From the NCBI GenBank assembly GCA_035627655.1, contig DASPLI010000001.1:323355-387354 (forward strand): a stretch of 64,000 nt of DNA, read 5' to 3'. Below the pieces are notes generated by a model that searched no databases, had not been told where the DNA came from, and saw nothing but the letters and a program-made list of their open reading frames with translations. The first letter of the stretch is position 1. Every line of letters starts with the position of its first letter. A program made the translations under genes and the position numbers. Below are positions 1,290 to 13,543 of this stretch, one piece after another. This DNA comes from Minisyncoccota bacterium (GTDB taxonomy: Bacteria; Patescibacteriota; Minisyncoccia; Phycocordibacterales; Phycocordibacteraceae).

Positions 1290-2441
1290 ATGTCGCGTCT
1301 TTATAGTATGCGTATCGCCTTGCTCGTCGTGTTCGTCGCGCTTCTGGCTGCCGTTGCCGGTAGCGCGCTTGCCGCTTTCCCGGAAACAACCTCTCCTGAG
1401 GATCTGCGCGCAAAGTATCAAAACGGGACCGTGCGAATACTTATTATGCCCGGGCACGAGCCGACGTATGGTGGCGCGGAGCAGAACGGTCTTCGGGAGC
1501 GGGATATTGCCGTACAGATTTCAAACAAGCTTGCCGAGCTCCTGCGTACCAACCCGCGGTATGAAGTGACGGTTGCTCGCGATACCGCGTCTTGGCACCC
1601 TGACCTTGATACGTACTTTGAGGAAGAATGGAAAGATATTCAGACGTTTGTAAAAACAAAGAAGCGCGCGATGGAACGTATGGTCCGGCGCGGAGATGTA
1701 GAGGACCGCTCGTTTGAAGTCGCGCACAATACGGCGGCGACGGATGTTGCGTACCGCCTCTACGGCATCAACAAGTGGGCGAACGAGGAGGGATACGATC
1801 TTGCAATTCACGTACATCTCAACGATAACGTTGGCGCTGAGTTTCAATCAGGATTCGCGGTGTACGTACCGGACCAGCAGTATGGCAACGCCCGAGCATC
1901 GCGGGCAGTGGGCGAGGCAATCGCGTTTGAGTTGAACGATTTCAACGCCACCTCAACGCTGCCGATTGAAAACCATGGCATCGTCGAAGATCAAGACCTG
2001 ATCGCGCTCGGCGCTTTCAATACGGCTGACTTCGCGAGCTTATTGGTTGAGTACGGGTATATCTATGAGTCGAAGATCGCACATCCAGAGGCGCGCTCAG
2101 TAGTGTTTGATGACATGGCCTACCAAACCTATCGTGGTCTGCAGGACTTCTTTGGCGATCCGGTCTCCGGCGACAACACGCTTGCGCTCCCGTTTGCATG
2201 GACCGTGGATTCGCTTGTGGTTGGGTCATCGAGTCCGCAGGCGTATGCCCTTCAGGCAGCACTCCATCGTCTGGGCTTCTATCCACCTCAGGGACAACTT
2301 CTGATCGGCTGTCCTATTTCCGGCTATGTAGGCGAGTGCACCATACAGGCTTTGAAAGCATTCCAAGCAGCAAAAGGTCTTGAGCAGACCGGATCGATCG
2401 GTCCGCGTACGAAAGCAGCGCTCCAAGCAGCAGGGTTCTAG
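1290..2441 (+). CDS. N-acetylmuramoyl-L-alanine amidase (Amidase_3-like) with a C-terminal peptidoglycan-binding domain; secreted
   Basis: N-terminal signal peptide (LLVVFVALLAAVAGSALA). 'ILIMPGHEPTYGG' zinc-amidase motif. C-terminal 'ALQAALHRLGFY...GSIGPRTKAALQAA' resembles PG_binding_1. Confidence 0.65.
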   Translation: MSRLYSMRIALLVVFVALLAAVAGSALAAFPETTSPEDLRAKYQNGTVRILIMPGHEPTYGGAEQNGLRERDIAVQISNKLAELLRTNPRYEVTVARDTASWHPDLDTYFEEEWKDIQTFVKTKKRAMERMVRRGDVEDRSFEVAHNTAATDVAYRLYGINKWANEEGYDLAIHVHLNDNVGAEFQSGFAVYVPDQQYGNARASRAVGEAIAFELNDFNATSTLPIENHGIVEDQDLIALGAFNTADFASLLVEYGYIYESKIAHPEARSVVFDDMAYQTYRGLQDFFGDPVSGDNTLALPFAWTVDSLVVGSSSPQAYALQAALHRLGFYPPQGQLLIGCPISGYVGECTIQALKAFQAAKGLEQTGSIGPRTKAALQAAGF

Positions 2442-2899
2442 CGCGTGTAGCGATTTGCGAGAACGTAGGCGCCTGCCCAAAAGAGGCCAAGCAAGAAACC
2501 AGCGAGGACCTGGAGCGGCGTGTGTACGCCAAGGTCGACGCGGCTGAGCCCGATTGCAAGCGCGCCAAGCACGCAGGAAACGTATATGAGGTAACGGATC
2601 GGCGCTCTGAAATCTTTGGCCAGGTAGCAGCCGATAAGCGCGAGGAAGGCTGCGCCGGTCGCATGCCCACTCGGGAACGCGTAGCCCGTCACTTCTACAA
2701 GCATTTGTTCAGGGCGCTCAACTTTAAAGAGCTCCTTGAGACCGTTGACTGATAAAAGGAGTCCGAGCGTGGCAGTAGAAAGTAGAAACGCCTGCCGAAG
2801 GCGATGCTTCAGGACTTGGTAAATCAAGAGCGCACACACGATCGCGAAGAAGCCTTCCGTGCTTGCGATGATCGTGAAAACAAAGACGTAGAGATCCAC
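2438..2899 (-). CDS. PAP2-family membrane phosphatase (undecaprenyl-diphosphatase-like)
   Basis: 'PSGHA' and 'SRVDLGVHTP' PAP2 motifs; multiple TM helices. Confidence 0.6.
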   Translation of the reverse strand: MDLYVFVFTIIASTEGFFAIVCALLIYQVLKHRLRQAFLLSTATLGLLLSVNGLKELFKVERPEQMLVEVTGYAFPSGHATGAAFLALIGCYLAKDFRAPIRYLIYVSCVLGALAIGLSRVDLGVHTPLQVLAGFLLGLFWAGAYVLANRYTR

Positions 2900-2962
2900 A
2901 GGGAAGAGTATAGCAATAGATGCAAAAGCGCCCCGGAACGAGTCCGGGGCACTTCAAGGTAC

Positions 2963-3889
2963 TTACTGCGGCGGCTGAGGAAGGTGCGGCACTTGCACCA
3001 ACATCGTCGCAATCAGAAACAGGGCGAGCCCTGCATACATGCCGAACCAGGCCCAACGCTGTGAAGGCGTTAGATCCGGACGCGTGTCTGGTTCTTCAAG
3101 CTCGTTTTCCCGGCGTACCGCAGCGACAATTGCCACGATGACGAAGGGGAGTGTGATGACGCAGTCGAAGATATCAAGCCACATGGGCTGGCTGCTGAAG
3201 CCGAGCGCCATCAAGGTTGCCATGGTGAGCCAGCAGCCGGTAATGAGTCCCGCACGCCACCTGAGTGGAATGATGCGGAATTCGAACAGCACCAGGATCC
3301 AGATGTAGAGGATCACTGGCTCTCGAAGCAGTACTGAGAAGACCGCGAGTGCGGTCAACCCGATGTACTTGAACCACTGGCCGACTGCCTGAGTCACCCG
3401 TCCGCCGTCAAGCGGGCTGATGGGCAGCAGGTTGAAGAGGTTCAAGAATGCGCCGAGATAGCTGCCGACCAGCAGAATGTGGGACAGTGGCGTGTCGCGC
3501 GGAAGAACGAACCATGCGCCGAGGACGGCGAGGGTTCCGATCGTTCCGAGCAGCGGTCCGCCAAATCCCACAAAGGCTTCCGTGTCTCGATCCCCGAACT
3601 TCGGCGCAAAGATTGCCGCGCCGAGGAAGGGGATAAAGACGGGCGTGGGAGTGTCATACCCCCGCATCCGCATCGCGACCACGTGCCCCATCTCGTGGAT
3701 GAGGAGCAGTACGACGAAGAGGATGGCCAGCCATGGGCCAAAGAGAAACGCATACGCGATTGCCGAGATCGACATGGTGATGAACATCAACATGGGCTTG
3801 GCAACCTTGAGGAGCTTCAAGAGTTTGGCGGCCTTCGTAAACAGTGCCAGGCCGACAACAAAGAGGCTCCCCTTACTCCGTTCTTGCAT
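2963..3889 (-). CDS. M50 (site-2 protease family) membrane zinc metalloprotease
   Basis: 'HEMGH' zinc motif in a TM helix; 'NLLPISPLDGGRV' M50 signature. Confidence 0.7.
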   Translation of the reverse strand: MQERSKGSLFVVGLALFTKAAKLLKLLKVAKPMLMFITMSISAIAYAFLFGPWLAILFVVLLLIHEMGHVVAMRMRGYDTPTPVFIPFLGAAIFAPKFGDRDTEAFVGFGGPLLGTIGTLAVLGAWFVLPRDTPLSHILLVGSYLGAFLNLFNLLPISPLDGGRVTQAVGQWFKYIGLTALAVFSVLLREPVILYIWILVLFEFRIIPLRWRAGLITGCWLTMATLMALGFSSQPMWLDIFDCVITLPFVIVAIVAAVRRENELEEPDTRPDLTPSQRWAWFGMYAGLALFLIATMLVQVPHLPQPPQ

Positions 3890-4029
3890 TGAGCTCTCCT
3901 GTATTGAAAGAGCGACCCGGTACCGTACCGGGTCGTATTACAATGCCAGGTTTATGGAAAGAGTCAACGCATCGGCGTCCTTGCTACAATCTTCCAATAT
4001 TCCTAAGCAATGCCTGGCATACAGGCACC

Positions 4030-5169
4030 ATGATTTCTATGACCGGTGACGAACTTCTCGCAACGTATCGACAGGTAGGCGGACGCATTGAAACGAAAGG
4101 AAAAGTGGAGCTGGCGTCCCGAGAAGATTTCGCAACGTTCTATACCCCTGGCGTCGGTACCATTTCAACGCATCTCGCTAAGCACCCGGACGAAGCGCGC
4201 GAATTTTCGGTCAAGAAAAACAGCGTCGCGGTTATTTCAGACGGTTCAGCAGTACTCGGGCTTGGAAACATTGGTCCGTATGGTGCGCTTCCGGTGATGG
4301 AAGGGAAGGCACTGATCTTCAAGCAGCTTGCAAACGTTGATGCGTGGCCGATCGTGCTCTCCACGCAGGATACGGAGAAGATTATTGAAACCATTATTGC
4401 GATAGCGCCCTCCTTCGGCGGCATCAACCTGGAAGATATTGCCGCACCGCAATGCTTTGAGATCGAGAAGCGCCTCATCGAAGCGCTCGACATTCCCGTC
4501 ATGCATGACGACCAGCACGGAACGGCAATTGTCGTACTTGCCGGTCTCATCAACGGCGCGAAAGTCGTAGAGAAGGAGCTGACCGAATTGAAGGTGGTCA
4601 TTATTGGCGCAGGCGCTGCAGGTGCTGCAACGGCAAAACTCCTGGTGGCAGCCGGCATCAAGGATGTTGTTCTCGTGGATCGTGCGGGCATCATCGTCAA
4701 AGGTCGGGCTGACTTGAGTGGTGTCAAAGAAGAGCTTGCGCACCTCACCAACCCGCGCGGGGTAACAGGCGCGCTTGAAGACGCGATGATTGGTGCAGAC
4801 GTCGTCATTGGACTATCTGGCGGCGGCAAGCTCTCGCAGGAGCACATCAAGAGCATGAGCGCCCGTTCAATGGTGTTCGCGCTTGCAAATCCGGTCCCAG
4901 AAATCATGCCGGACGATGCAAAGGCTGCAGGAGCTGCGGTGATTGCGACCGGACGTTCCGATTTCCCGAACCAAATCAACAACGCGCTCGTGTTCCCAGG
5001 CGTATTCCGCGGCGTCTTTGATGCTGGCATTCGACGCATTACGGATGATATGAAACTTAAGGCAGCGGCAGCGCTCGCGTCTTTGGTTGAGGCGCCCACC
5101 GCCGACGCGGTCATGCCGTCCATTCTTGATCCGAAGGTTGTACCAACGATCGCAAACGCACTTCGCTAA
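4030..5169 (+). CDS. NAD(P)-dependent malic enzyme (small form)
   Basis: 'LATYRQVGGRIE', 'FYTPGVG', 'VISDGSAVLGLGNIG' and 'VIIGAGAAGAATAKLL' Rossmann motif. The ORF-track start at 3844 is probably an N-terminal over-extension; internal ATG at 4030 used. Confidence 0.75.
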   Translation: MISMTGDELLATYRQVGGRIETKGKVELASREDFATFYTPGVGTISTHLAKHPDEAREFSVKKNSVAVISDGSAVLGLGNIGPYGALPVMEGKALIFKQLANVDAWPIVLSTQDTEKIIETIIAIAPSFGGINLEDIAAPQCFEIEKRLIEALDIPVMHDDQHGTAIVVLAGLINGAKVVEKELTELKVVIIGAGAAGAATAKLLVAAGIKDVVLVDRAGIIVKGRADLSGVKEELAHLTNPRGVTGALEDAMIGADVVIGLSGGGKLSQEHIKSMSARSMVFALANPVPEIMPDDAKAAGAAVIATGRSDFPNQINNALVFPGVFRGVFDAGIRRITDDMKLKAAAALASLVEAPTADAVMPSILDPKVVPTIANALR

Positions 5170-5849
5170 ACGTTTGCTTTGGCGTTGTCGCGCAAGCGGT
5201 AGTCGTTCACAACGTTGTGCGCAAGTCGCGTCGGCTCCGGCAGCCGATGTTTGCGTACACAAGAAAAGACAATCGAAACTGACTCCTCAAGTGTGATTTT
5301 GTGCCCGGGCGAAACAAAGACGGGAAGTACGCCGCGCTTCGTGCGAAGCGCCGCGCCGATGGTCTCGCTGGTTCTCGGATCTCGAAGCGGTGCGGAAGCG
5401 CCCGGTTCGTCTGCAGGATCTTCGTAAATACCGGTCAGTACTTTTTTTGAACAGCCGATAGTTGGTATATCAAGCGTAAGTCCCAAATGCGATGCGATAC
5501 CAAGACGCCGCGGATGCGCGATGCCAACACCGTCGACAATGAGCACATCCGGCTTCTGCGTGAGCAGCTCCCAGGCAGAGAGAAGCATCGGAATCTCACG
5601 AAATGAGAGGAGGCCGGGGATATACGGAAAGGGAATCGTCTCTTTCGTCACCGCGTGGTCGCACAGGTCAAGATCCGGATACCACATGCTCACAAACCCG
5701 GCGAACCCCTCGGTAGAGAACCGATCCATGGAGACGTCGCATCCGCCGATAAGCTTTGGCGGTGTCGGGAGCGGAGTCAGCAAGACTTGCGGCTGGAGCC
5801 GCTTCTGAATCTCGATTGCCTCCGTTGGTGTAACGGTAAGACCGGTCAT
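5166..5849 (-). CDS. nfi: Endonuclease V (deoxyinosine 3' endonuclease)
   Basis: 'GGCDVS', 'PYIPGLLSFRE', 'LIVDGVGIAHPRRLGIASHLGL', 'IGCSK' - canonical Nfi motifs. Confidence 0.8.
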   Translation of the reverse strand: MTGLTVTPTEAIEIQKRLQPQVLLTPLPTPPKLIGGCDVSMDRFSTEGFAGFVSMWYPDLDLCDHAVTKETIPFPYIPGLLSFREIPMLLSAWELLTQKPDVLIVDGVGIAHPRRLGIASHLGLTLDIPTIGCSKKVLTGIYEDPADEPGASAPLRDPRTSETIGAALRTKRGVLPVFVSPGHKITLEESVSIVFSCVRKHRLPEPTRLAHNVVNDYRLRDNAKANV

Positions 5850-5896
5850 ATGCGTGCCACTGTATATGCTCCACTATGGATTTTTTCGTGAAGCGT

Positions 5897-5925
5897 ACGA
5901 AACCTTGACCTGACTATACATTTAT
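5897..5925 (+). promoter_or_regulatory. Candidate sigma70-type promoter upstream of the Ubl-conjugation operon
   Basis: TTGACC, 17-nt spacer, TATAAC about 120 nt upstream of the 6046 start, in the intergenic region after nfi. Confidence 0.25.
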
Positions 5926-6045
5926 TATATAACCCGCCGAGGTATGCGTCCTTTGACACTGCAAAGTACTCATGCTCAAACGCAACTCATCCATATCGGG
6001 CCGGGCGATTGATCCTGTCCCGAGCAACCAGGAGAACGCGTTAGA

Positions 6046-7452
6046 ATGCGTAACTACTTCATCAACCATACGCCAGTCCGCGAAACCGGGCTGCGCGAGG
6101 CTGAAGTGCCATTCGAGCTCTTCACCATTAGCCGGCAGAAAGGCTTCCTTATTTCAGAGGCCGATCTGCAACGAGCGCTTGATGCCATACAGTCCCGGTC
6201 AGAAGGGAGCACTCCTTCGGCCTACGACGGTATCGACGTGCTCAACGTCCGCCGAATCACGGCGGCCGAGGCAGCACCTCCGGAGCTATCTGAAGCTGCG
6301 TCCGACGGGTCGATTCGCATCACTACCGAGACGTGGAAAAAAGGCTACTACGAGGACGAACGCGAGTCCGCAAAGCGCAAGCGCCAGGTCTTCAAGGTCT
6401 TGCGCGAATATGCGCCGAGACTCGGCGTTTCCGACATCGTGGTCGTCGCGCACAACGAGCGCGACTACTATGAGGTGCCACGAACGACACCAAACAAGTT
6501 TTTCGTGTACTTCTGGTGCGCTCCTTCGGGAAGCGCACGTGATCCGATACGTGAATCCGTGTTCTGGGGCCTCTCGGCCGGCAGACCGTGGTCCGCGTGG
6601 CGGCATACCGGTCTTGGCGTGCGCATTGAAGACGATAATGAGCAGGTTGTCGGCGAACTTGTCGGCAACAATCTCTATATCCTCGAGGCGCTGCAATTCG
6701 TCGAATACCAAAACGCAATTCCGATCCTGCGCCATATCCTCGATGAGGTTGTCTTTCAACGGACGGCCACTGAGGAGGAGCGTGCGCAGCGCACGCGAGA
6801 GCGTGCACTTCAGTTACGGCCCAAATTCCGCGAGGCATACGTTGCCGCATGCGGGGGCCGATTCAAGAAGACGATCGATAGCACCAAAGTCGCAATCTCG
6901 ACCGGCAAGCAGAAAGTCGACCAGCTCACCAAAGATCTGGTCACTGCTATTCGGGAGACCGCGGGCGCCGAGCGTAAGCTTGAGCAGCTTGAAGCGGTCG
7001 GACCGTCGACCTTTGAGACCTATGGTCTTGAGTTCGATCGTCTCGTTGAGATTCCGAAGATCCGCGACGTGCGGGTCGATAACGGCGTTATCAAGGTGTT
7101 CACAGACATCTTGTACTGCGTCGATCCGCGCACCAGTATCCGCCACGAAATTGGCGCTTTCCGGATCGACATCTCGATCCATGGGAGCGTTCAGTGGCAC
7201 AACCTGACGCGCAAAGTCGACGGCTATAAGGGGCAAATGAACGCCCCGCATATCTGGAACAACGGAACGGCGTGTCTCGGCAATATGGCCGAGATCATTC
7301 CGGACCTCATTGGCCGATATGAATTCGCGGCGCTGGCGATGGTGTGCATCCAGTTCGTCGAATCGGTGAACGTGGATGATCCTGCCGGCAAAATGATCAG
7401 CAACTGGCCGGTCGCTCAAAGCGCGGGTACGCCCGTGCAAGAAGCGGCCTAA
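6046..7452 (+). CDS. E2 (UBC)-like ubiquitin-conjugating enzyme homolog; catalytic domain at the C-terminus after a ~330-aa N-terminal region with coiled-coil
   Basis: C-terminal 'NAPHIWNNGTACLGNM' matches the eukaryotic/bacterial E2 'HPN..(N)G.ICL' active-site motif including the catalytic Cys. First gene of a tightly spaced four-gene operon with JAB, E1 and Ubl. Confidence 0.55.
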   Translation: MRNYFINHTPVRETGLREAEVPFELFTISRQKGFLISEADLQRALDAIQSRSEGSTPSAYDGIDVLNVRRITAAEAAPPELSEAASDGSIRITTETWKKGYYEDERESAKRKRQVFKVLREYAPRLGVSDIVVVAHNERDYYEVPRTTPNKFFVYFWCAPSGSARDPIRESVFWGLSAGRPWSAWRHTGLGVRIEDDNEQVVGELVGNNLYILEALQFVEYQNAIPILRHILDEVVFQRTATEEERAQRTRERALQLRPKFREAYVAACGGRFKKTIDSTKVAISTGKQKVDQLTKDLVTAIRETAGAERKLEQLEAVGPSTFETYGLEFDRLVEIPKIRDVRVDNGVIKVFTDILYCVDPRTSIRHEIGAFRIDISIHGSVQWHNLTRKVDGYKGQMNAPHIWNNGTACLGNMAEIIPDLIGRYEFAALAMVCIQFVESVNVDDPAGKMISNWPVAQSAGTPVQEAA

Positions 7453-7463
7453 GGAGCAGGCGC

Positions 7464-8222
7464 ATGAAAAAGAAGAGAACAAAGAAGCGCGCAGTGGCAA
7501 ACGCTGCGCGCCCATTCGCCGCGCATGCATTCGAGCAGCGTGTCGAATTTCTCGGGCGACAACCCACGATCTTCGTGGAGCGGGAGGCATACGACCGCAT
7601 GTACCATATCGTGGACATCGCCGACGAAGAAGTCGGCTGGCTGGGGACCGTTGAACGGCTCCCGGAGGGCGACTTCCTTATTAAGGAGGTGTTCCTCCTC
7701 AAGCAGGAGGTGTCGCCTTCGCAGACCGAGCTCTCGGAAGAGGGCATCGCGCTCTTGTATCAGGAGCTCATCAGCACGCACCCCGACGGGGTGGATGCTG
7801 CAAACGAGCTTCGGTTCTGGGGCCACTCCCACGTTCGGATGGGGACCTCTCCATCCGGGCAGGACAACTCCCAAATGGGACAGTTCCAGGAAAACGGCTG
7901 TCCGTGGTTTATCCGCGGGATTCTCAACAAGCTCGGCCGCATGGAGTTCACGATCTATCTCTGGGAAGCCGGAGTGGTGATCGTGGATGCCGCGTGGTCG
8001 GTTTGTCTCGCGGTGGATGACAGTGTCCGCAGCGAGCTCGAAGAAGAATTCAAAGAGAAGGTCTCCAGTCGCCGGTACGTGGCCCCCTATAAGGGTCCCG
8101 AACGGGCGCACGTGCACATTCTGCCCGGTATGGGCATGAATGATGCGCACCTTATCGATGATGACTTCGACGGGATGGACGGCATGGGGTTTGGCGTCCC
8201 GCACAATTGGCGGGGTACCTAA
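7464..8222 (+). CDS. JAB/MPN+ (JAMM) metalloprotease, likely Ubl-processing/deconjugating isopeptidase
   Basis: 'FWGHSHVRMGTSPSGQD' is an exact H-x-H-x7-S-x2-D JAMM motif, with upstream acidic 'DIADEEVGW'. RBS-like AGGAG 8 nt upstream. Confidence 0.75.
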   Translation: MKKKRTKKRAVANAARPFAAHAFEQRVEFLGRQPTIFVEREAYDRMYHIVDIADEEVGWLGTVERLPEGDFLIKEVFLLKQEVSPSQTELSEEGIALLYQELISTHPDGVDAANELRFWGHSHVRMGTSPSGQDNSQMGQFQENGCPWFIRGILNKLGRMEFTIYLWEAGVVIVDAAWSVCLAVDDSVRSELEEEFKEKVSSRRYVAPYKGPERAHVHILPGMGMNDAHLIDDDFDGMDGMGFGVPHNWRGT

Positions 8223-8223
8223 C

Positions 8224-8913
8224 ATGCCCCTTGATCCATTGCGTCATCTCGATGTCTTCAAGCCGCACGCCTTTGGCGGTCGGCGGGTAGACGTTATCGG
8301 ATGCGGAGCTACCGGCTCGCGCATCGCGTTGTCCTTGGCGAAGCTTGGCGTGGAAGTCATCCACGTCTGGGACTTCGACAAGGTGGAAGAGCACAACCTC
8401 GCTAATCAAGGCTTCGGCCTTGAGGACGTGGGGGAGCTGAAGACCACGGCGCTTGCGCGCCTGGTTAAACGAGACGCTGGCGTGCGTATCGAAACGCACG
8501 CTGAGCGCGTCGACGGCTCGCAGCCGCTTGGAGACGTGGTGTTCCTGCTTACGGACACCATGGCTTCGCGCAAGGAGATTTGGGACCGTGGCTTGAAATT
8601 CAAGCTGCGTACCAAGCTCCTGGTGGAAACGCGTATGGGAGCCGATAGCGGCCGTGTGTACGCGTTGAATCCCAACACCCCGTTGCATACACGGGAGTGG
8701 GAGAAGACGCTCTACACGGATGAAGAGGCAGAAGTTTCCGCTTGCGGGACCTCTGTTTCGGTCGGACCAACCGCCGAAATCATCTCTGGACTCGCTGTCT
8801 GGCAGATGCTACGGTGGTTCGCCGTCGAGCAAGGAGGGGAGGATGAACTCGACAACGAGATCATCTTTTCCTTGCGGGCCATGACGATGCTGAATCGTCG
8901 ATTCAAGGCCTAA
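8224..8913 (+). CDS. Minimal E1-like adenylyltransferase (ThiF/MoeB/HesA superfamily)
   Basis: 'VDVIGCGATGSRIALSLAKLGV' glycine-rich Rossmann loop; 'DFDKVEEHNLANQ' (E1 Mg/ATP motif); downstream 'SACGTSVSVGPTAEIISGLAVWQML' crossover-loop Cys region. Start 1 nt after the JAB stop; an in-frame upstream ATG at 8140 also exists. Confidence 0.7.
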   Translation: MPLDPLRHLDVFKPHAFGGRRVDVIGCGATGSRIALSLAKLGVEVIHVWDFDKVEEHNLANQGFGLEDVGELKTTALARLVKRDAGVRIETHAERVDGSQPLGDVVFLLTDTMASRKEIWDRGLKFKLRTKLLVETRMGADSGRVYALNPNTPLHTREWEKTLYTDEEAEVSACGTSVSVGPTAEIISGLAVWQMLRWFAVEQGGEDELDNEIIFSLRAMTMLNRRFKA

Positions 8914-9012
8914 GTACTTTGCAAGCAACCTGCCTGAGCAATCAGGCACGACGGACTGCCAAGTCGAAAAACCGAGCCTTCCAACCAATCTGCTCACACA
9001 AGGGAGTATCCG

Positions 9013-9276
9013 ATGAGCAATAAGGAAAAAACTGGAACCGAAGAAACGGAAGCCGCCGGCCCGTTCGAGACGATCACCGTTCGCGTCGGGCGCGTGCCCG
9101 GCCCGATCAATCCGATTATCTTGAATGGTCGCCGCACGGTCGCTGACGCCCTCTCGGGCGCCGGCATCTCCGCAAGCGAAGGCGAAATCCGCGTCAACGG
9201 CGATCTGTCGAAGGTCGACGCCGCGCTCAACAACGGCGATACCGTTCTCTTGGTTCGGAAGATTCGCGGCAACTAA
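9013..9276 (+). CDS. Small beta-grasp ubiquitin-like protein (ThiS/MoaD-like), C-terminus ...VRKIRGN
   Basis: 87 aa; C-terminal half 'ILNGRRTV...GEIRVNGDLS...LNNGDTVLLVRKIRGN' follows the ThiS/MoaD 'NG..V......L.DGD.V' pattern. Penultimate Gly is followed by one Asn. Last gene of the operon with E2, JAB and E1. Confidence 0.55.
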   Translation: MSNKEKTGTEETEAAGPFETITVRVGRVPGPINPIILNGRRTVADALSGAGISASEGEIRVNGDLSKVDAALNNGDTVLLVRKIRGN

Positions 9277-9414
9277 CGGCGCCGCGATCATCCACTTTTG
9301 TCCAACCGTGCATAGGCTGCCGAATTAGCTTAGATCCTCGTTATGGGCGATTGATTCCTACACGAGTTCTTCACGAGCTACGAGAAGTCGAACACCCGCG
9401 GGCAGAGTGGGAAA

Positions 9415-9447
9415 GGGCCGAGCATAATGCTCGGCCCTTTTTGTTTT
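9415..9447 (+). terminator. Rho-independent terminator closing the E2-JAB-E1-Ubl operon
   Basis: GC-rich hairpin GGGCCGAGCAtaatGCTCGGCCC followed by TTTTTGTTTT. Confidence 0.5.
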
Positions 9448-9483
9448 GCGAACAGTCGGCTTTTTGTTATTGTCGCTGTATAC

Positions 9484-9570
9484 GGAGACGTGGCTGAGTG
9501 GTCGAAAGCGCCTCACTGCTAACGAGGTAGGGTGTAAAAGCTCTCCAGGGTTCGAATCCCTGCGTCTCCG
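9484..9570 (+). tRNA. tRNA-Ser (anticodon GCT), type II with a long variable arm
   Basis: Acceptor GGAGACG/CGTCTCC, anticodon loop CTGCTAA, T-arm CAGGG-TTCGAAT-CCCTG; no encoded CCA. Confidence 0.8.
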
Positions 9571-9576
9571 CCCGCT

Positions 9577-10089
9577 GTGACAAAGATACTCTTTATTCAA
9601 GGTATCCATAATTACCTCCTTGGCGATCGCTGGGTAGCGGACGTTTCGGAAGCAACCGGCATGGAAGTCGTGCGCTTTCCGATGCTCTATGGTCTTTTGG
9701 AAAGCGAAAAACAGCTTGAGCTCATAGCGCAGATAAATGCGCTTCTTGAAGGCAGCAATGACCGGTTCATTGTGGTGGCGCATTCCCTCGGCGGCATTCT
9801 TGCCCGGTCGCTGTCTGATACGGCATATACAAAAATAGATAAAATCATCATGCTCGCTGCTCCACACCAGGTGCCGTTCCCGTGGTTTCTTGAGGTTGTG
9901 GAGAAGCTCTCATACCGCACGCATGTGCCCGTGCCGGTCGAGTCGTGCGGTTTTTACTTGGACCCGATTGTTCCGTTCCGCTATACGCGAGATCCGGAAG
10001 CTGTGTTGCATCGGAATTACCTCGGGACGCACACGCAAGTCTTTGATCGGAAGCGCTTCTTTCGTCAACTCATAACACGCTCCGCCTAG
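9577..10089 (+). CDS. Alpha/beta hydrolase (esterase/lipase-like)
   Basis: 'VVAHSLGGIL' GxSxG nucleophile elbow. Confidence 0.55.
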   Translation: MTKILFIQGIHNYLLGDRWVADVSEATGMEVVRFPMLYGLLESEKQLELIAQINALLEGSNDRFIVVAHSLGGILARSLSDTAYTKIDKIIMLAAPHQVPFPWFLEVVEKLSYRTHVPVPVESCGFYLDPIVPFRYTRDPEAVLHRNYLGTHTQVFDRKRFFRQLITRSA

Positions 10090-10143
10090 GCGAGGTGGTG
10101 GTACCATGCAGGTACAACCCCTCTACTTATATTTCTCAACGCC

Positions 10144-10746
10144 ATGTTTTGTCCAAACTGCGGAGCGCGCGTGACGGAAGGAGCAAAATTCTGCCAACAG
10201 TGCGGGCGGGCGACCACGCTCTCGGGAGAGACACCGGTACCAGAATACTTTGTCGTGTCGCCCGGGAAGCTGGCATTCTTTTCCATTCTCACGCTCGGGC
10301 TGTATGAGCTTTACTGGTTCTATAGGAATTGGCAGGCCGTGAAGAAAGCGGAAGGGACAGACATTTCTCCGCTGTGGCGCACGCTGCTCTCCATCTTTTA
10401 CTGCCATCCGCTCTTCAAGCGTGTGGCGGCAGCTGCGCGCGAGCATGACTACCCAAACCTCTTTTCAGCAAAGTGGGTTGCCGCTGCCTACATCCTGATA
10501 CTGCTTGCTGCAAACGCGCTCGGGAACGTAGATACCGATGAGGTTGGCTTCAATCTCTTGTGGCTTGCGGTGACGCTTTCTTCTTTCATCCCGCTTTTGA
10601 CAGTACAGGGAGCGATCAACTTCCTGCGAAAGAAGATGCAGGGGCCGTCGGTCCTTAAAAGCGGTTTCTCGACGGGCGAAGTCGTGCTGGTTGTGCTTGG
10701 CGTCCTGTGGTTCTGCCTGATACTGATCGGTATCTTCTCCGCTTAG
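10144..10746 (+). CDS. Zinc-ribbon membrane protein
   Basis: N-terminal 'CPNCGARV...CQQCG' zinc ribbon followed by about four TM segments; paralogous N-terminus to the next gene. Confidence 0.45.
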   Translation: MFCPNCGARVTEGAKFCQQCGRATTLSGETPVPEYFVVSPGKLAFFSILTLGLYELYWFYRNWQAVKKAEGTDISPLWRTLLSIFYCHPLFKRVAAAAREHDYPNLFSAKWVAAAYILILLAANALGNVDTDEVGFNLLWLAVTLSSFIPLLTVQGAINFLRKKMQGPSVLKSGFSTGEVVLVVLGVLWFCLILIGIFSA

Positions 10747-10749
10747 CCT

Positions 10750-11835
10750 ATGTTTTGCACGCACTGCGGCACGAAGCTTGAGGAAGGAACGAAGTTCTGC
10801 ACCAACTGCGGCTCGCCAACGAAGCAGGAGCGCAAGCGATTCCCCTGGGGTGCGATCGCGCTGGTCCTTGTCGTGCTTGCCGGTATTGGAGCTGCCGCCT
10901 ACTACACGAGCACCTCGGAAGAAGAGCAGGGGGATATCGGATCCGCCACCTCGCTTCTGGCGGAAATGGAGCCCTCCTTGGAACCGGTTGGCCGCTTCAC
11001 GCAACCGCTCCTCTTTGATTCTGACGAGTTGAGCGATGAGGAATGGCTTTCCTATATTGCGTACACGCAACCGGCTTTCCTGTACGTTCCCGAGCCATCA
11101 CATCCACAGTTTCCCGGCCAGATCCAGGCATACAGCGCCGTTGTAAAGATCGTCTGTGAGGACGAAGACTACTTCTATTATGGAAGCGGTACCAATATGG
11201 ATGCTGCGGGATACGTACTCACCAACCTGCACGTCATAGAAGGAGATGCAGAGCTTGAGTGCATGGTCGGATTCCCAGATCCACAGTCAGGCTTGATACG
11301 CGAAGTGTATTGGGCGACACCCATCGTTGACGCGGAAAACGTTACGGGGCATGACCTTGCCGTGCTTTCGGTCGAGGAGCCGGTGTTCGACGAGGAGCAT
11401 AATATCTACGGGTTTTACGAGAAATACGCCAACGGCACATTCCAGTATTACTTTGAAACGGATGCATGCCTTGAGGTTGCTCCGGAGCTCGGTGATCAAA
11501 TTTTCGCACTCGGTTACCCGGCGCTCACGGGCGGCGCACTGACGATTACCGACGGTCTCATCAGCAGTCTCTATTCCGCAGACGACTACCTGATTACGTC
11601 GGCAAAAATCAGCAGCGGCAACTCCGGCGGTCTTGCGCTTGATACCAACGGTTGCTTTGTCGGCGTTCCGACCGCTGTCTATCTTGAAGAGGAAAACGAG
11701 CAGTACGGTGAAATCATTGACGCCTACTTCGTCTACGAATTCTTTGATGCCGTTCTCGATGATATCGAGGAGTATCGCGTGTCGAACGGATGGACGAGCG
11801 AATCTAAAGAAGAACTCCCGACACCTTCGTTTTAG
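10750..11835 (+). CDS. Zinc-ribbon / TM-anchored trypsin-like serine protease
   Basis: N-terminal 'CTHCGTKL...CTNCG', one TM, then chymotrypsin-fold triad elements 'VLTNLHV' (His), 'HDLAVLSV' (Asp), 'GNSGGLALD' (Ser). Confidence 0.6.
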   Translation: MFCTHCGTKLEEGTKFCTNCGSPTKQERKRFPWGAIALVLVVLAGIGAAAYYTSTSEEEQGDIGSATSLLAEMEPSLEPVGRFTQPLLFDSDELSDEEWLSYIAYTQPAFLYVPEPSHPQFPGQIQAYSAVVKIVCEDEDYFYYGSGTNMDAAGYVLTNLHVIEGDAELECMVGFPDPQSGLIREVYWATPIVDAENVTGHDLAVLSVEEPVFDEEHNIYGFYEKYANGTFQYYFETDACLEVAPELGDQIFALGYPALTGGALTITDGLISSLYSADDYLITSAKISSGNSGGLALDTNGCFVGVPTAVYLEEENEQYGEIIDAYFVYEFFDAVLDDIEEYRVSNGWTSESKEELPTPSF

Positions 11836-12449
11836 TAGGCAAGGGCGATAGGAAGGACGCGGGCGCCGACAAGGGTGCTCGCTCCTTCCTGTAAGGTCGC
11901 TCCGGTGGTGACCACGTCATCAATAAGAAGGTAGGTGGTCTCGTCCGCTGTTTTTATTTGTGTGAAGGCACCGCGTACGTTTTGCAGACGCCGTCTCCGG
12001 GAGAGGGAGGTTTGCGAAGCGGTGTCTCGTGTCCGTACCAGCACTGCTTCATCAAGCGGGAGCGGGAGGAGTCGTCGTGTGTTCTCTAGTATGCGCGCCA
12101 CTTGGTTATAGCCCCGCTCTCGGTAGCGCATTTCTGAGAGGGGAATAGGCACCAGCGTGTGCGATGTGTGTCCGACAAGCGCTTCCTCTGCCAGAAATTC
12201 CTGCAGATATTCAGCAAGTACGCGGCCGAGTAGCTCCTGGGCTCGCTCGTTCCCCTTATATTTCGCTTCCTTTATAAGTGCATGTACCAGCGGGTTGCGG
12301 TACGGAAGCAGCGCGGTGACCGTGCCGATCGTTCGAGGAGCAACGAGCTTTGCCACCGCGTCATAGGAAGAATCGAGCACCAGTCGCTCGGTATCTCGGG
12401 GTGGAAACAAAACGGCAAGCAGGAGCCGCAACATGCCTGCATGATACAA
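11832..12449 (-). CDS. comFC: ComF-family phosphoribosyltransferase-like competence protein
   Basis: C-terminal PRTase motif 'YLLIDDVVTTGATL'; located next to the T4P/competence cluster. Confidence 0.6.
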   Translation of the reverse strand: MYHAGMLRLLLAVLFPPRDTERLVLDSSYDAVAKLVAPRTIGTVTALLPYRNPLVHALIKEAKYKGNERAQELLGRVLAEYLQEFLAEEALVGHTSHTLVPIPLSEMRYRERGYNQVARILENTRRLLPLPLDEAVLVRTRDTASQTSLSRRRRLQNVRGAFTQIKTADETTYLLIDDVVTTGATLQEGASTLVGARVLPIALAY

Positions 12450-12457
12450 TCACGACA

Positions 12458-13543
12458 ATGGCATTTCTTGCAGATCTCTTTGGCAAGAAGAAAGGTGGAA
12501 GCGTGGTCGGCATTGATGTCGGCTCTTCCTCGTTGAAGGTAGTGCAGTTGCGTCGCGAAGGGGGGACGGCCGTACTTGAGACGTATGGTGAGATCGCGCT
12601 TGGTCCGTACGCAGGCGCGGAAATCGGGCAGGCGACGAACCTCCCGGCAGAAAAAGTCGCCGAAACGCTCAAGGATCTCCTGCGTGAATCAAACGTCACG
12701 ACCAAGGACGCCGGCATTTCTATTCCGTTCTCCCGCTCGCTCCTTACTATGGTGGAGCTGCCGCGCCGCGATAATCCGGAAGAACAAAAGACGATCATCT
12801 CGCTTGAGGCGCGAAAATACATCCCGATCCCGGTTTCCGAAGTACAGCTCGATTGGTTCGTCGTTCCAGAAGCACTTTCGCAGGGGCAGCAGCCTCCAGC
12901 AAAGGTGAAGGTACTCCTGGTGGCGGTCAACAACGACGAGCTTGCGCGCCTCTCGAAGATCGTCGAGCTCTCCGGGCTTTCCGCAACGTTCTACGAAATT
13001 GAGATTTTCAGCACTATCCGCTCGGTGGTCGACGAGCCAGTGAAGCCCGTGATGGTCCTCGATATTGGCGCATCAGCAACGAAGGTGTATGTCGTCGAGC
13101 GCGGCATTGTGGCTGTTTCCCACAATATTCGCCAGGGCGGGCAAGACGTAACCCGTACGATCGCAACCTCCCATGGCCTTGATGTATCGAAGGCGGAGCT
13201 TCTCAAGAAGGAGCATGGGTTTGGTAATGGGAGCGCGCCGTATGAGCGTCAGACCATCGAGCTGGTGTTCTCCCGCATCTTTGAAGAGGCGAAGCGCGCA
13301 CTCACGCGCTATGAGACAGCGAATCAGAAGTCGGTGTCCGCAATCGTGCTTACTGGCGGTGGGGGAGTAACCAAAGAGCTTGCTGCCTACGCAAAATCTT
13401 TCTTCTCCATTGATGTGCGCATCGCCGATCCGTTTGGAAAGACGGCGGCGCCAGCGTTCATGCGCCCCGTGCTTCAGGAGATTGGACCGGAGTTTGCGGT
13501 TGCCGCAGGACTCGCGCTCCGGAAGCTTGAGGAGCAAGGGTAG
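12458..13543 (+). CDS. pilM: Type IV pilus assembly protein PilM (actin-like ATPase fold)
   Basis: 'VVGIDVGSSSLKVVQL' and the overall PilM/FtsA-like pattern. ORF-track start 12350 over-extended; ATG 12458 used. Confidence 0.8.
   Translation: MAFLADLFGKKKGGSVVGIDVGSSSLKVVQLRREGGTAVLETYGEIALGPYAGAEIGQATNLPAEKVAETLKDLLRESNVTTKDAGISIPFSRSLLTMVELPRRDNPEEQKTIISLEARKYIPIPVSEVQLDWFVVPEALSQGQQPPAKVKVLLVAVNNDELARLSKIVELSGLSATFYEIEIFSTIRSVVDEPVKPVMVLDIGASATKVYVVERGIVAVSHNIRQGGQDVTRTIATSHGLDVSKAELLKKEHGFGNGSAPYERQTIELVFSRIFEEAKRALTRYETANQKSVSAIVLTGGGGVTKELAAYAKSFFSIDVRIADPFGKTAAPAFMRPVLQEIGPEFAVAAGLALRKLEEQG

Follow-up and report, generated by a model that had tools for sequence, protein, structure and literature searches.

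A four-gene operon of a candidate phyla radiation bacterium probably encodes a self-contained ubiquitin-like conjugation module of a family missed by profile libraries

What do four tightly packed genes do in a bacterium with a very small genome when their products look like the parts of a protein-conjugation pathway? The genes, here called A to D, occupy positions 6046–9276 of a 64,000-nucleotide stretch of contig DASPLI010000001.1 (the window), and their host is a member of the candidate phyla radiation (CPR; Paceibacterota), since protein A is identical to a hypothetical protein on a 742-kb contig of a Candidatus Paceibacterota metagenome-assembled genome. An initial annotation had read them as a complete operon for the conjugation of a ubiquitin-like protein (Ubl), composed of a conjugating enzyme (E2), a JAB peptidase, an activating enzyme (E1) and the Ubl itself. 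Our analysis supports that reading through the identity or fold of the four parts, the conservation of their catalytic residues and the conservation of the module across phyla, and the operon is probably a self-contained Ubl conjugation module of a family that profile libraries have missed. The motifs first quoted for the four proteins are each present in the translations at the places given for them.

The C-terminal part of protein A had been taken for a UBC fold, and this is borne out by a high-confidence AlphaFold model (pLDDT (predicted local distance difference test) 90, with 65 homologues in the alignment) in which the N-terminal helix, the four-stranded antiparallel meander, the active-site loop and the C-terminal helices of that fold are all present. 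The structural matches of the domain have only E2s on top, with the bacterial CdnG-E2, BubB and Cap2 lower down; Foldseek run with the whole protein A model found no E2. The long N-terminal extension described earlier is also there (335 residues), and in the model it consists of two domains and one helix of about 93 residues. The first domain is a small α/β unit (residues 1–70), connected by a low-confidence linker (residues 78–86) to the second (residues 91–240), which has a GATase-like fold. Two residues of the long helix, Cys269 (6850–6852) and Arg303 (6952–6954), are conserved in at least 90% of the 65 homologues; they could serve as a second relay or redox site, or touch the E1 or Ubl.

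Sequence libraries do not recognize protein A. The full protein has no match in Pfam, PADLOC or PHROGs, and NCBIfam returns only two sub-threshold, spurious families; Rad50 and Tgl (NCBIfam) were rejected as relatives, the similarity being coiled-coil noise. PDB sequences gave nothing useful either, and the TALE-repeat matches were set aside as an artefact of summing over a repetitive target aligned to the long helix. None of 46 E2-like domain sequences matches any Pfam E2 or RWD family (UQ_con and Prok-E2_A–E), even at E ≤ 5, and a profile search of PDB sequences with the E2-domain alignment found no relatives. Using hhalign, the active-site loop of protein A, APHIWNNGTACLGN (residues 400–413), pairs with YHPNINSNGSICLD of UbcH5b such that Cys410 falls on the catalytic Cys85, a weak match with 4.7% probability. 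The pattern APH402-x7-C410-LGN is conserved among the E2-like homologues.

A stronger argument comes from the way in which these residues are kept and lost. All primary copies of the E2-like protein keep APH...G.AC[LFM]G, with His402 and Cys410 retained throughout CPR, Melainabacteria and viral contigs. In Melainabacteria, and at some of the viral loci, the primary gene has a shorter, second E2-like gene as its neighbour, and in these partner copies the Cys, the His or both have disappeared (APTVFSDGRAGAAE, APQVLNSGRAFLSE and APRVYPDGTACIDE). As in eukaryotic pairs of an E2 and a ubiquitin E2 variant (UEV), the partners are inactive in His/Cys while the primary copies keep both. Loss confined to the partner copies argues that selection for catalysis acts on His402 and Cys410, and this E2/UEV-like pattern is the best evolutionary argument for the predicted catalytic role of the two residues. 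Several Melainabacteria loci hold two such long and short pairs each.

Protein B had been described as carrying an exact JAMM motif. The motif, HSHVRMGTSPSGQD (H-x-H-x7-S-x2-D, residues 121–134), is complete, and 26 diverse homologues all have Glu56, His121, Ser122, His123, Ser131 and Asp134, which make up a complete JAMM signature. Profile libraries come close to the family without recognizing it: Pfam Prok-JAB gives sub-threshold matches for 10 of the 26 (best E value 0.002, and 0.14 for the window protein), and none of 228 homologues has a precomputed Pfam domain. A PDB sequence search with the family profile found nothing.

Protein C is, as proposed, an E1 of about 230 residues stripped to its adenylation core. 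It matches Pfam ThiF at 4.1e-21 (75.6 bits, against a cut-off of 28.1), and its PDB sequence matches are ThiF (5.6e-7), MccB (7e-6) and Cap2 (3e-3). The Rossmann loop and Cys174, which aligns with Cys184 of ThiF, are invariant. Among 24 homologues from related loci, all with a single adenylation domain, the invariant stretches are GxGATGS, DxDxVExHNxxNQ, FLLTDTM..SR, ETRMG..GR and S-x-C-G; the zinc-binding CxxC pairs of ThiF and MoeB occur neither in protein C nor in any of these 24. Compared with the NCBIfam equivalogs, protein C scores far below every ThiF, MoeB, PRTRC and Cap2 cut-off (best 62.7 against 159 bits).

The small protein D ends in ...RKIRG86-N87, so that, as first noted, exactly one Asn follows the C-terminal Gly. 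A β-grasp modifier is suggested by family profile matches together with the invariant Gly86 at the end: Pfam ThiS matches 7 of 14 homologues (best 8.8e-10), and other family members match TGS, ThiS-like, SAMP2, Ub-Mut7C, RnfH and ubiquitin. The window protein itself is sub-threshold in Pfam. Against PDB sequences, the best matches of the family profile are PF1061 (0.029), SAMP2 (0.043), ubiquitin variants and MoaD. Every Ubl unit, whether from CPR, Melainabacteria or viral contigs, ends in ...[K/P/R]-[I/V]-x-Gly-Asn, with Gly86 and Asn87 invariant. Free-standing Ubls stop directly after the Asn in 28 of 35 cases and run on for 1–5 residues in the others.

The same Gly–Asn end recurs inside longer genes. 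In Melainabacteria and some viral loci, poly-Ubl genes encode two or three tandem units with short linkers (for example, GN|VDLGKPADGST), and all internal junctions read GN|X. The metagenomic proteins P0067 and P0068 are likewise di-Ubls. In Saccharibacteria and Doudnabacteria, a GN-ending Ubl is fused in frame to a divergent second β-grasp-like domain that has no GN end and is followed by a long, Ala/Glu-rich and probably coiled-coil tail; this may be a Ubl–cargo fusion released by the JAB. Poly-Ubl precursors and Ubl fusions require an endopeptidase at the Gly–Asn junction.

The module is widespread. Homologue searches with the operon genes returned 65, 228 and 12 matches, and the E2-like domain profile finds 2,962 cluster representatives at E ≤ 1e-3, 512 of them at ≤ 1e-30. 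A pattern scan with one genome per species gave 27 loci, which belong to Saccharibacteria, Parcubacteria and Doudnabacteria (all CPR), to many Melainabacteria/Obscuribacterales, to one member of Thermoanaerobaculia and to one metagenome-assembled genome (MAG) labelled Flavobacteriaceae, the sequence of which has an identical counterpart in an unclassified MAG. The module is also present on five IMG/VR contigs (26–207 kb). When hidden Markov models for five parts were run on the six-frame open reading frames (ORFs) of all loci, the E2-like protein, JAB, E1 and Ubl were found together in nearly all of more than 30 independent loci and in nearly every locus of sufficient length, in CPR usually in the order A–JAB–E1–Ubl. 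This recurrence and the homologue numbers are far beyond chance, and the family has no annotation as such in the Pfam, NCBIfam, PADLOC and PHROGs libraries. No paper on a system of this kind from Patescibacteria, Saccharibacteria, CPR, Melainabacteria or huge phages turned up in the literature collection that we searched, which does not prove that none has been published.

The viral label of the five contigs comes from IMG/VR alone, because PHROGs applied to the neighbours of these loci found helicases and a methyltransferase and no capsid or terminase. Deposited phage genomes contain no relative of the E2 domain and one weak JAB match only. The 206,856-bp contig IMGVR_UViG_3300028883_000032 (L003, L004 and L033), which is filed as viral, has the full module with an E2 and an inactive E2-like partner; its neighbouring genes encode Thg1, an Apyc1-like MBL (metallo-β-lactamase) protein, RlaP and ThyX. 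In the Melainabacteria-type locus L005, one TerD + vWA-TerF-like gene (8953–10446) lies between the E2-like pair and the poly-Ubl gene.

From these parts a conjugation cycle can be proposed, and the classical enzyme cascade is the model with the best support. The Ubl would be made with a C-terminal Gly86–Asn87, and the JAMM peptidase would take off the Asn to expose Gly86; in relatives it would cut poly-Ubl or Ubl-fusion precursors at the same Gly–Asn site. The E1, probably a homodimer, would adenylate the Gly86 carboxylate and may hold the Ubl on the loop Cys174, and the Ubl would be handed as a thioester to Cys410 in the UBC-fold domain of protein A. The N-terminal domains and long helix of protein A would pick the target, acting as a built-in ligase (E3), and the Ubl would go to a target lysine, a modification that the JAMM peptidase could undo. 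The tight gene spacing, the single terminator and the fact that the genes travel together in nearly every long-enough locus speak for such a cascade. Two of its features have precedents in Bil systems: the Bil JAB removes a single residue after the Ubl glycine (Gly97–Ala98 in E. aridi BilA; PMC10557695), and Bil E2s have been proposed to pick targets directly, without an E3 (PMC10557695; PMC11601596).

The biological role is the weakest part of the argument. Provided that the cascade is real, we tentatively favour an accessory conflict or defence function, at slightly below an even chance; the marking of endogenous proteins, to regulate or unfold them, ranks second, as a possibility on the unlikely side, and other roles take the remaining share. 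All characterized bacterial E1/E2/JAB systems are antiphage (PMC11601596; PMC10557695), and the sporadic spread over distant phyla and IMG/VR contigs fits a horizontally moving accessory system.

Several points weigh against the proposed cascade or its use in defence. The invariance of the Asn, and the many Ubls that end exactly at Gly–Asn, are unexpectedly strict for a disposable cap. The folds of the JAB and the Ubl are predicted from motifs and profile matches, and the chemical steps without exception, as well as the site of cleavage, the target and the role, are what we infer from the parts. The operon had been placed in a typical defence position, and this is not supported: here, as in other CPR loci, it is surrounded by housekeeping genes (nfi, tRNA-Ser, UDG, IMP cyclohydrolase, tRNA methyltransferase, RlmN and L33), and PADLOC matched only the Rossmann region of the E1, over about 65–85 residues. 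Finally, a Clp-type AAA+ gene is tied to the module in Melainabacteria, pointing to proteostasis.

It is this last point that gives the best-surviving alternative, in which endogenous proteins would be tagged by the module and passed to an AAA+ unfoldase or protease, following the logic of Pup–Mpa or of ubiquitin and the proteasome, instead of serving phage defence. In all seven long-enough Melainabacteria/Obscuribacterales loci, a Clp/Hsp100-type double-AAA+ gene lies directly after the E1 on the same strand. Its product, of about 790–830 residues, contains AAA, AAA_lid_9, AAA_2 and ClpB_D2-small, does not have the long spacing of an M-domain and is mostly unassigned in its N-terminal region. 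One CPR locus (L001, 2744–5419) has ClpB just upstream of the operon, the poly-Ubl genes and E2/UEV-like pairs recall chain-building machinery, and the housekeeping neighbours agree with such a role. This linkage suggests that, at least in some members of the family, proteins tagged with the Ubl go to an unfoldase. However, no such AAA+ gene is found in the operon or anywhere in the window, the gene order in Melainabacteria may be shared by descent, and the patchy spread and viral contigs fit an accessory system better. We regard proteostasis in place of defence as somewhat unlikely for the module.

Next in standing is an alternative that keeps the machinery and changes its chemistry. In the MccA peptide it is the C-terminal Asn that MccB, a ThiF-like enzyme, activates, by way of a succinimide. 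The E1 here could activate Asn87 in the same way, in which case the JAB would cut after the Asn and the Ubl would be linked to its target through Asn or isoAsn. A simple cap does not explain why the Gly–Asn end and the GN|X junctions are invariant, and we therefore retain this alternative; a peptidase that also cuts Ubl–lysine isopeptides would not be expected to need a fixed residue after the cut, and among solved structures MccB ranks second in sequence similarity to the E1. That likeness is, however, confined to the common Rossmann core, the peptide-clamp domain of MccB being missing from the 229-residue E1. Moreover, it is a C-terminal Gly that is activated in all characterized Ubl/E1 pairs, there is direct precedent for a JAB taking off a one-residue cap (PMC10557695), and a conserved cap could reflect a mere preference of this JAB family. 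Activation of Asn87 is, on balance, unlikely, and activation of Gly86 remains the chemistry that we prefer. It is a distinct and quite improbable proposition that the family holds one of two departures from known systems: an Asn-activating E1/E2 cascade, with an Asn-adenylate or succinimide and Asn- or isoAsn-linked conjugates, or a bacterial 'ubiquitin–unfoldase' tagging pathway that would be independent of Pup, eukaryotic and archaeal systems and also taken up by large phages.

Protein A might instead be a non-catalytic adaptor, like RWD or UEV proteins, with the E1 alone conjugating the Ubl as in the archaeal SAMP/UbaA pathway, which has no E2. The presence of His402 and Cys410 in every primary copy, and their specific loss from the partners, make this very unlikely. 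Least probable is a sulfur-carrier pathway of the ThiS, MoaD, CysO or QbsE type, in which the JAB would trim the carrier and the E1 make a thiocarboxylate. In its favour, ThiF is the nearest sequence relative of the E1, members of the Ubl family match ThiS and known triads of JAB, E1 and carrier trim residues after the Gly-Gly of the carrier (PMC1779556), but the E1 stays far below the ThiF/MoeB equivalog cut-off, no rhodanese, thi, moa, cys or sulfur-assimilation genes flank the operon or its counterparts in more than 30 related loci, the E2-like gene always adjoins, the tail is Gly-Asn and not Gly-Gly, and poly-Ubl precursors make no sense for a cofactor pathway.

How, then, does a conjugation module of this kind relate to known systems? 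The initial annotation pointed to the Bil and Bub families, and membership of either is contradicted by the single adenylation domain of the E1, the unfused genes, the conserved Cys and the lack of DUF6527. Bil (BilABCD; class 6C/CEHH of Iyer 2006) also has Ubl, E2, JAB and E1 as separate genes, a JAB that pre-processes a Ubl carrying a residue after its Gly, and an E2 that is thought to select targets where there is no E3 (PMC10557695, PMC11601596). However, the Bil E1 is a multidomain protein with an inactive and an active adenylation domain and a mobile Cys domain (PMC11601596), whereas here there is one adenylation domain, the E2 is greatly lengthened at its N terminus, the ThiS-like Ubl always ends in Gly-Asn, and the hosts are CPR bacteria, Melainabacteria and IMG/VR contigs. 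Bub (6E/DUF6527) is built from Ubl–E2 and JAB–E1 or E2–E1 fusions and uses oxyester (serine) intermediates and a DUF6527 serine protease (PMC11601596); in the system described here, by contrast, the genes are unfused, a Cys is conserved in both E1 and E2, and Pfam gives no DUF6527 match.

The class 6d operons of Iyer, Burroughs and Aravind (2006) have the same gene content, predicted logic and mobile, sporadic spread (PMC1779556). In their E2-like proteins a conserved His follows the Cys and none precedes it, and a separate α-helical protein is encoded in the operon (PMC1779556), whereas here the His precedes the Cys (APH...C), as in classical E2s, and there is no fifth gene. The Pfam families that came from the 2006 class work (Prok-E2_A–E, Prok_Ub and Multiubiquitin) have no match here. 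Type II CBASS (cyclic oligonucleotide-based antiphage signalling system) Cap2/Cap3 shares the ThiF-type adenylation, E2-fold and JAB activities, and Cap2 is a weak neighbour in sequence and structure. Cap2 is, however, an E1–E2 fusion that conjugates a CD-NTase and not a Ubl, no CD-NTase or effector lies near the operon, and the E1 reaches only 42 of the 320 bits required by NCBIfam cap2_3. For PRTRC, the score is 35.5 against 144.75 bits (PRTRC_ThiF), with no PRTRC partners present. ThiF–ThiS, MoeB–MoaD and the archaeal SAMP–UbaA–JAMM set are the closest sequence relatives of the E1 and Ubl, and SAMP is likewise paired with a JAMM protein, but these systems have no E2, a Gly-Gly end and zinc CxxC pairs, and sulfur transfer is their main or dual role. 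The operon works like Bil and class 6d, yet it belongs to none of Bil, Bub, Cap2/Cap3, PRTRC, ThiF/MoeB proper and 6d; we regard it as part of a new family of complete modules for Ubl conjugation, unusual in several respects.

The gene layout is largely as first described (Table 1): the four genes are co-directional, with gaps of 11 and 1 nt, and the last gap is 99 nt instead of 100. The flanking nfi and tRNA genes were both found, as Endonuclease V upstream and tRNA-Ser(GCU) downstream. An AGGAG lies 14 nt upstream of the ATG of gene A, and the candidate promoter of the operon was missed by a consensus promoter scan because its last base is C instead of T. We placed the start of gene C at 8224, and not at the beginning of the mechanical ORF (8140), because all homologues begin at a MPLDPLRH-type Met. 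The terminator hairpin folds with −32.5 kcal/mol (z −5.14), and none of 200 shuffled sequences folds equally well. An integrated phage or island at tRNA-Ser was rejected, there being no integrase and no break in composition (GC 0.56–0.61 against 0.53–0.59). Elsewhere in the window, two adjacent genes (10144–10746 and 10750–11835) each begin with a zinc ribbon and continue into a membrane (DUF4234-like) protein and a trypsin-like serine peptidase, respectively. The mechanical ORF of malic enzyme, from a GTG at 3844 (3844–5169), overlaps an M50 peptidase gene on the opposite strand (2963–3889), and its true start is probably farther downstream (3982–5169 as the alternative).

Table 1. Positions of features in the window and in related loci (L numbers)
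Sequence	Feature	Position	Strand	Remark
Window	Endonuclease V (nfi)	5166–5849	−	Pfam, 2.5e-67
Window	Candidate promoter, TTGACC-17 nt-TATAAC	5905–5933	+	Between nfi and operon; putative, read from the sequence
Window	Gene A, E2-like conjugating enzyme with long N-terminal extension	6046–7452	+	468 aa; UBC fold in model
Window	A, N-terminal region	6046–6765	+	Residues 1–240; presumed target-binding or oligomerization module
Window	A, single long helix	6772–7050	+	Residues 243–335
Window	A, UBC/E2-fold domain	7060–7425	+	Residues 339–460
Window	A, His402	7249–7251	+	Within APHIWNNGTACLGN
Window	A, predicted catalytic Cys410	7273–7275	+	Within APHIWNNGTACLGN
Window	Gene B, predicted JAMM/MPN+ metallopeptidase	7464–8222	+	252 aa; motif and weak Prok-JAB matches
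Window	B, Glu56	7629–7631	+	
Window	B, H121-S-H123...S131..D134	7824–7865	+	
Window	Gene C, minimal ThiF/MoeB-type E1	8224–8913	+	229 aa; Pfam ThiF
Window	C, GCGATGS	8299–8319	+	
Window	C, DFDKVEEHNLANQ	8371–8409	+	
Window	C, SACG	8737–8748	+	Invariant Cys174
Window	Gene D, ThiS/SAMP-like Ubl	9013–9276	+	87 aa; family profile matches
Window	D, Gly codon	9268–9270	+	
Window	D, Asn codon	9271–9273	+	
Window	D, stop codon	9274–9276	+	
Window	Intrinsic terminator closing the operon	~9410–9447	+	15-bp GC-rich hairpin, then U-run UUUUUGUUUU
Window	tRNA-Ser(GCU)	9483–9573		Downstream of terminator
L003	Short E2-like partner	7609–8967		Second E2-domain match
L005	Short E2-like partner	7857–8828		Second E2-domain match
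L016	Short E2-like partner	3001–3996		Second E2-domain match
L017	Short E2-like partners	2880–3773, 7366–8301		Second E2-domain matches
L020, L023–L032	Short E2-like partners			Second E2-domain matches
L017	Three-unit Ubl gene	4464–5348		
L018	Three-unit Ubl gene	1861–2610		
L020	Three-unit Ubl gene	4551–5351		
L030	Three-unit Ubl gene	4601–5350		
L031	Three-unit Ubl gene	4446–5351		
L005	Two-unit Ubl gene	11210–11758		
L021, L022	Two-unit Ubl genes			
L034	Two-unit Ubl gene	9276–9689		
L006	Ubl fusion	5953–6981		
L010	Ubl fusion	9338–10171		
L013	Ubl fusion	8814–9509		
L019	Ubl fusion	3594–4688		
L017	Clp-type AAA+ gene	11004–13475	+	
L020	Clp-type AAA+ gene	11043–13520	+	
L024	Clp-type AAA+ gene	10698–13070	+	
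L026	Clp-type AAA+ gene	4225–6675	+	
L028	Clp-type AAA+ gene	10061–12322	+	
L032	Clp-type AAA+ gene	10454–12973	+	
L040	Clp-type AAA+ gene	19926 to locus end	+	

To our knowledge, complete bacterial systems of E1, E2, peptidase and Ubl have been shown experimentally only recently (CBASS type II, Bil and Bub), and all of them in conventional bacteria. The operon described here points to a further large family, with about 3,000 E2-like domain clusters, whose E2 and JAB parts go unrecognized by Pfam, NCBIfam, PADLOC and PHROGs and which is concentrated in CPR bacteria, whose genomes are the smallest known, among the non-photosynthetic sisters of the cyanobacteria and on large contigs filed as viral. 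It unites features thought to be eukaryotic, namely a classical His...Cys E2 loop, inactive E2-variant partners, polyubiquitin-like precursor genes and a JAMM peptidase predicted to process and deconjugate the Ubl, with the simplest possible E1, and would therefore lend itself to the reconstitution of Ubl conjugation from a minimal set of four proteins. The family also offers a testable case of target choice by an E2 extension independently of an E3, and its Melainabacteria loci may connect the tagging by Ubl directly to an unfoldase of the Clp type.

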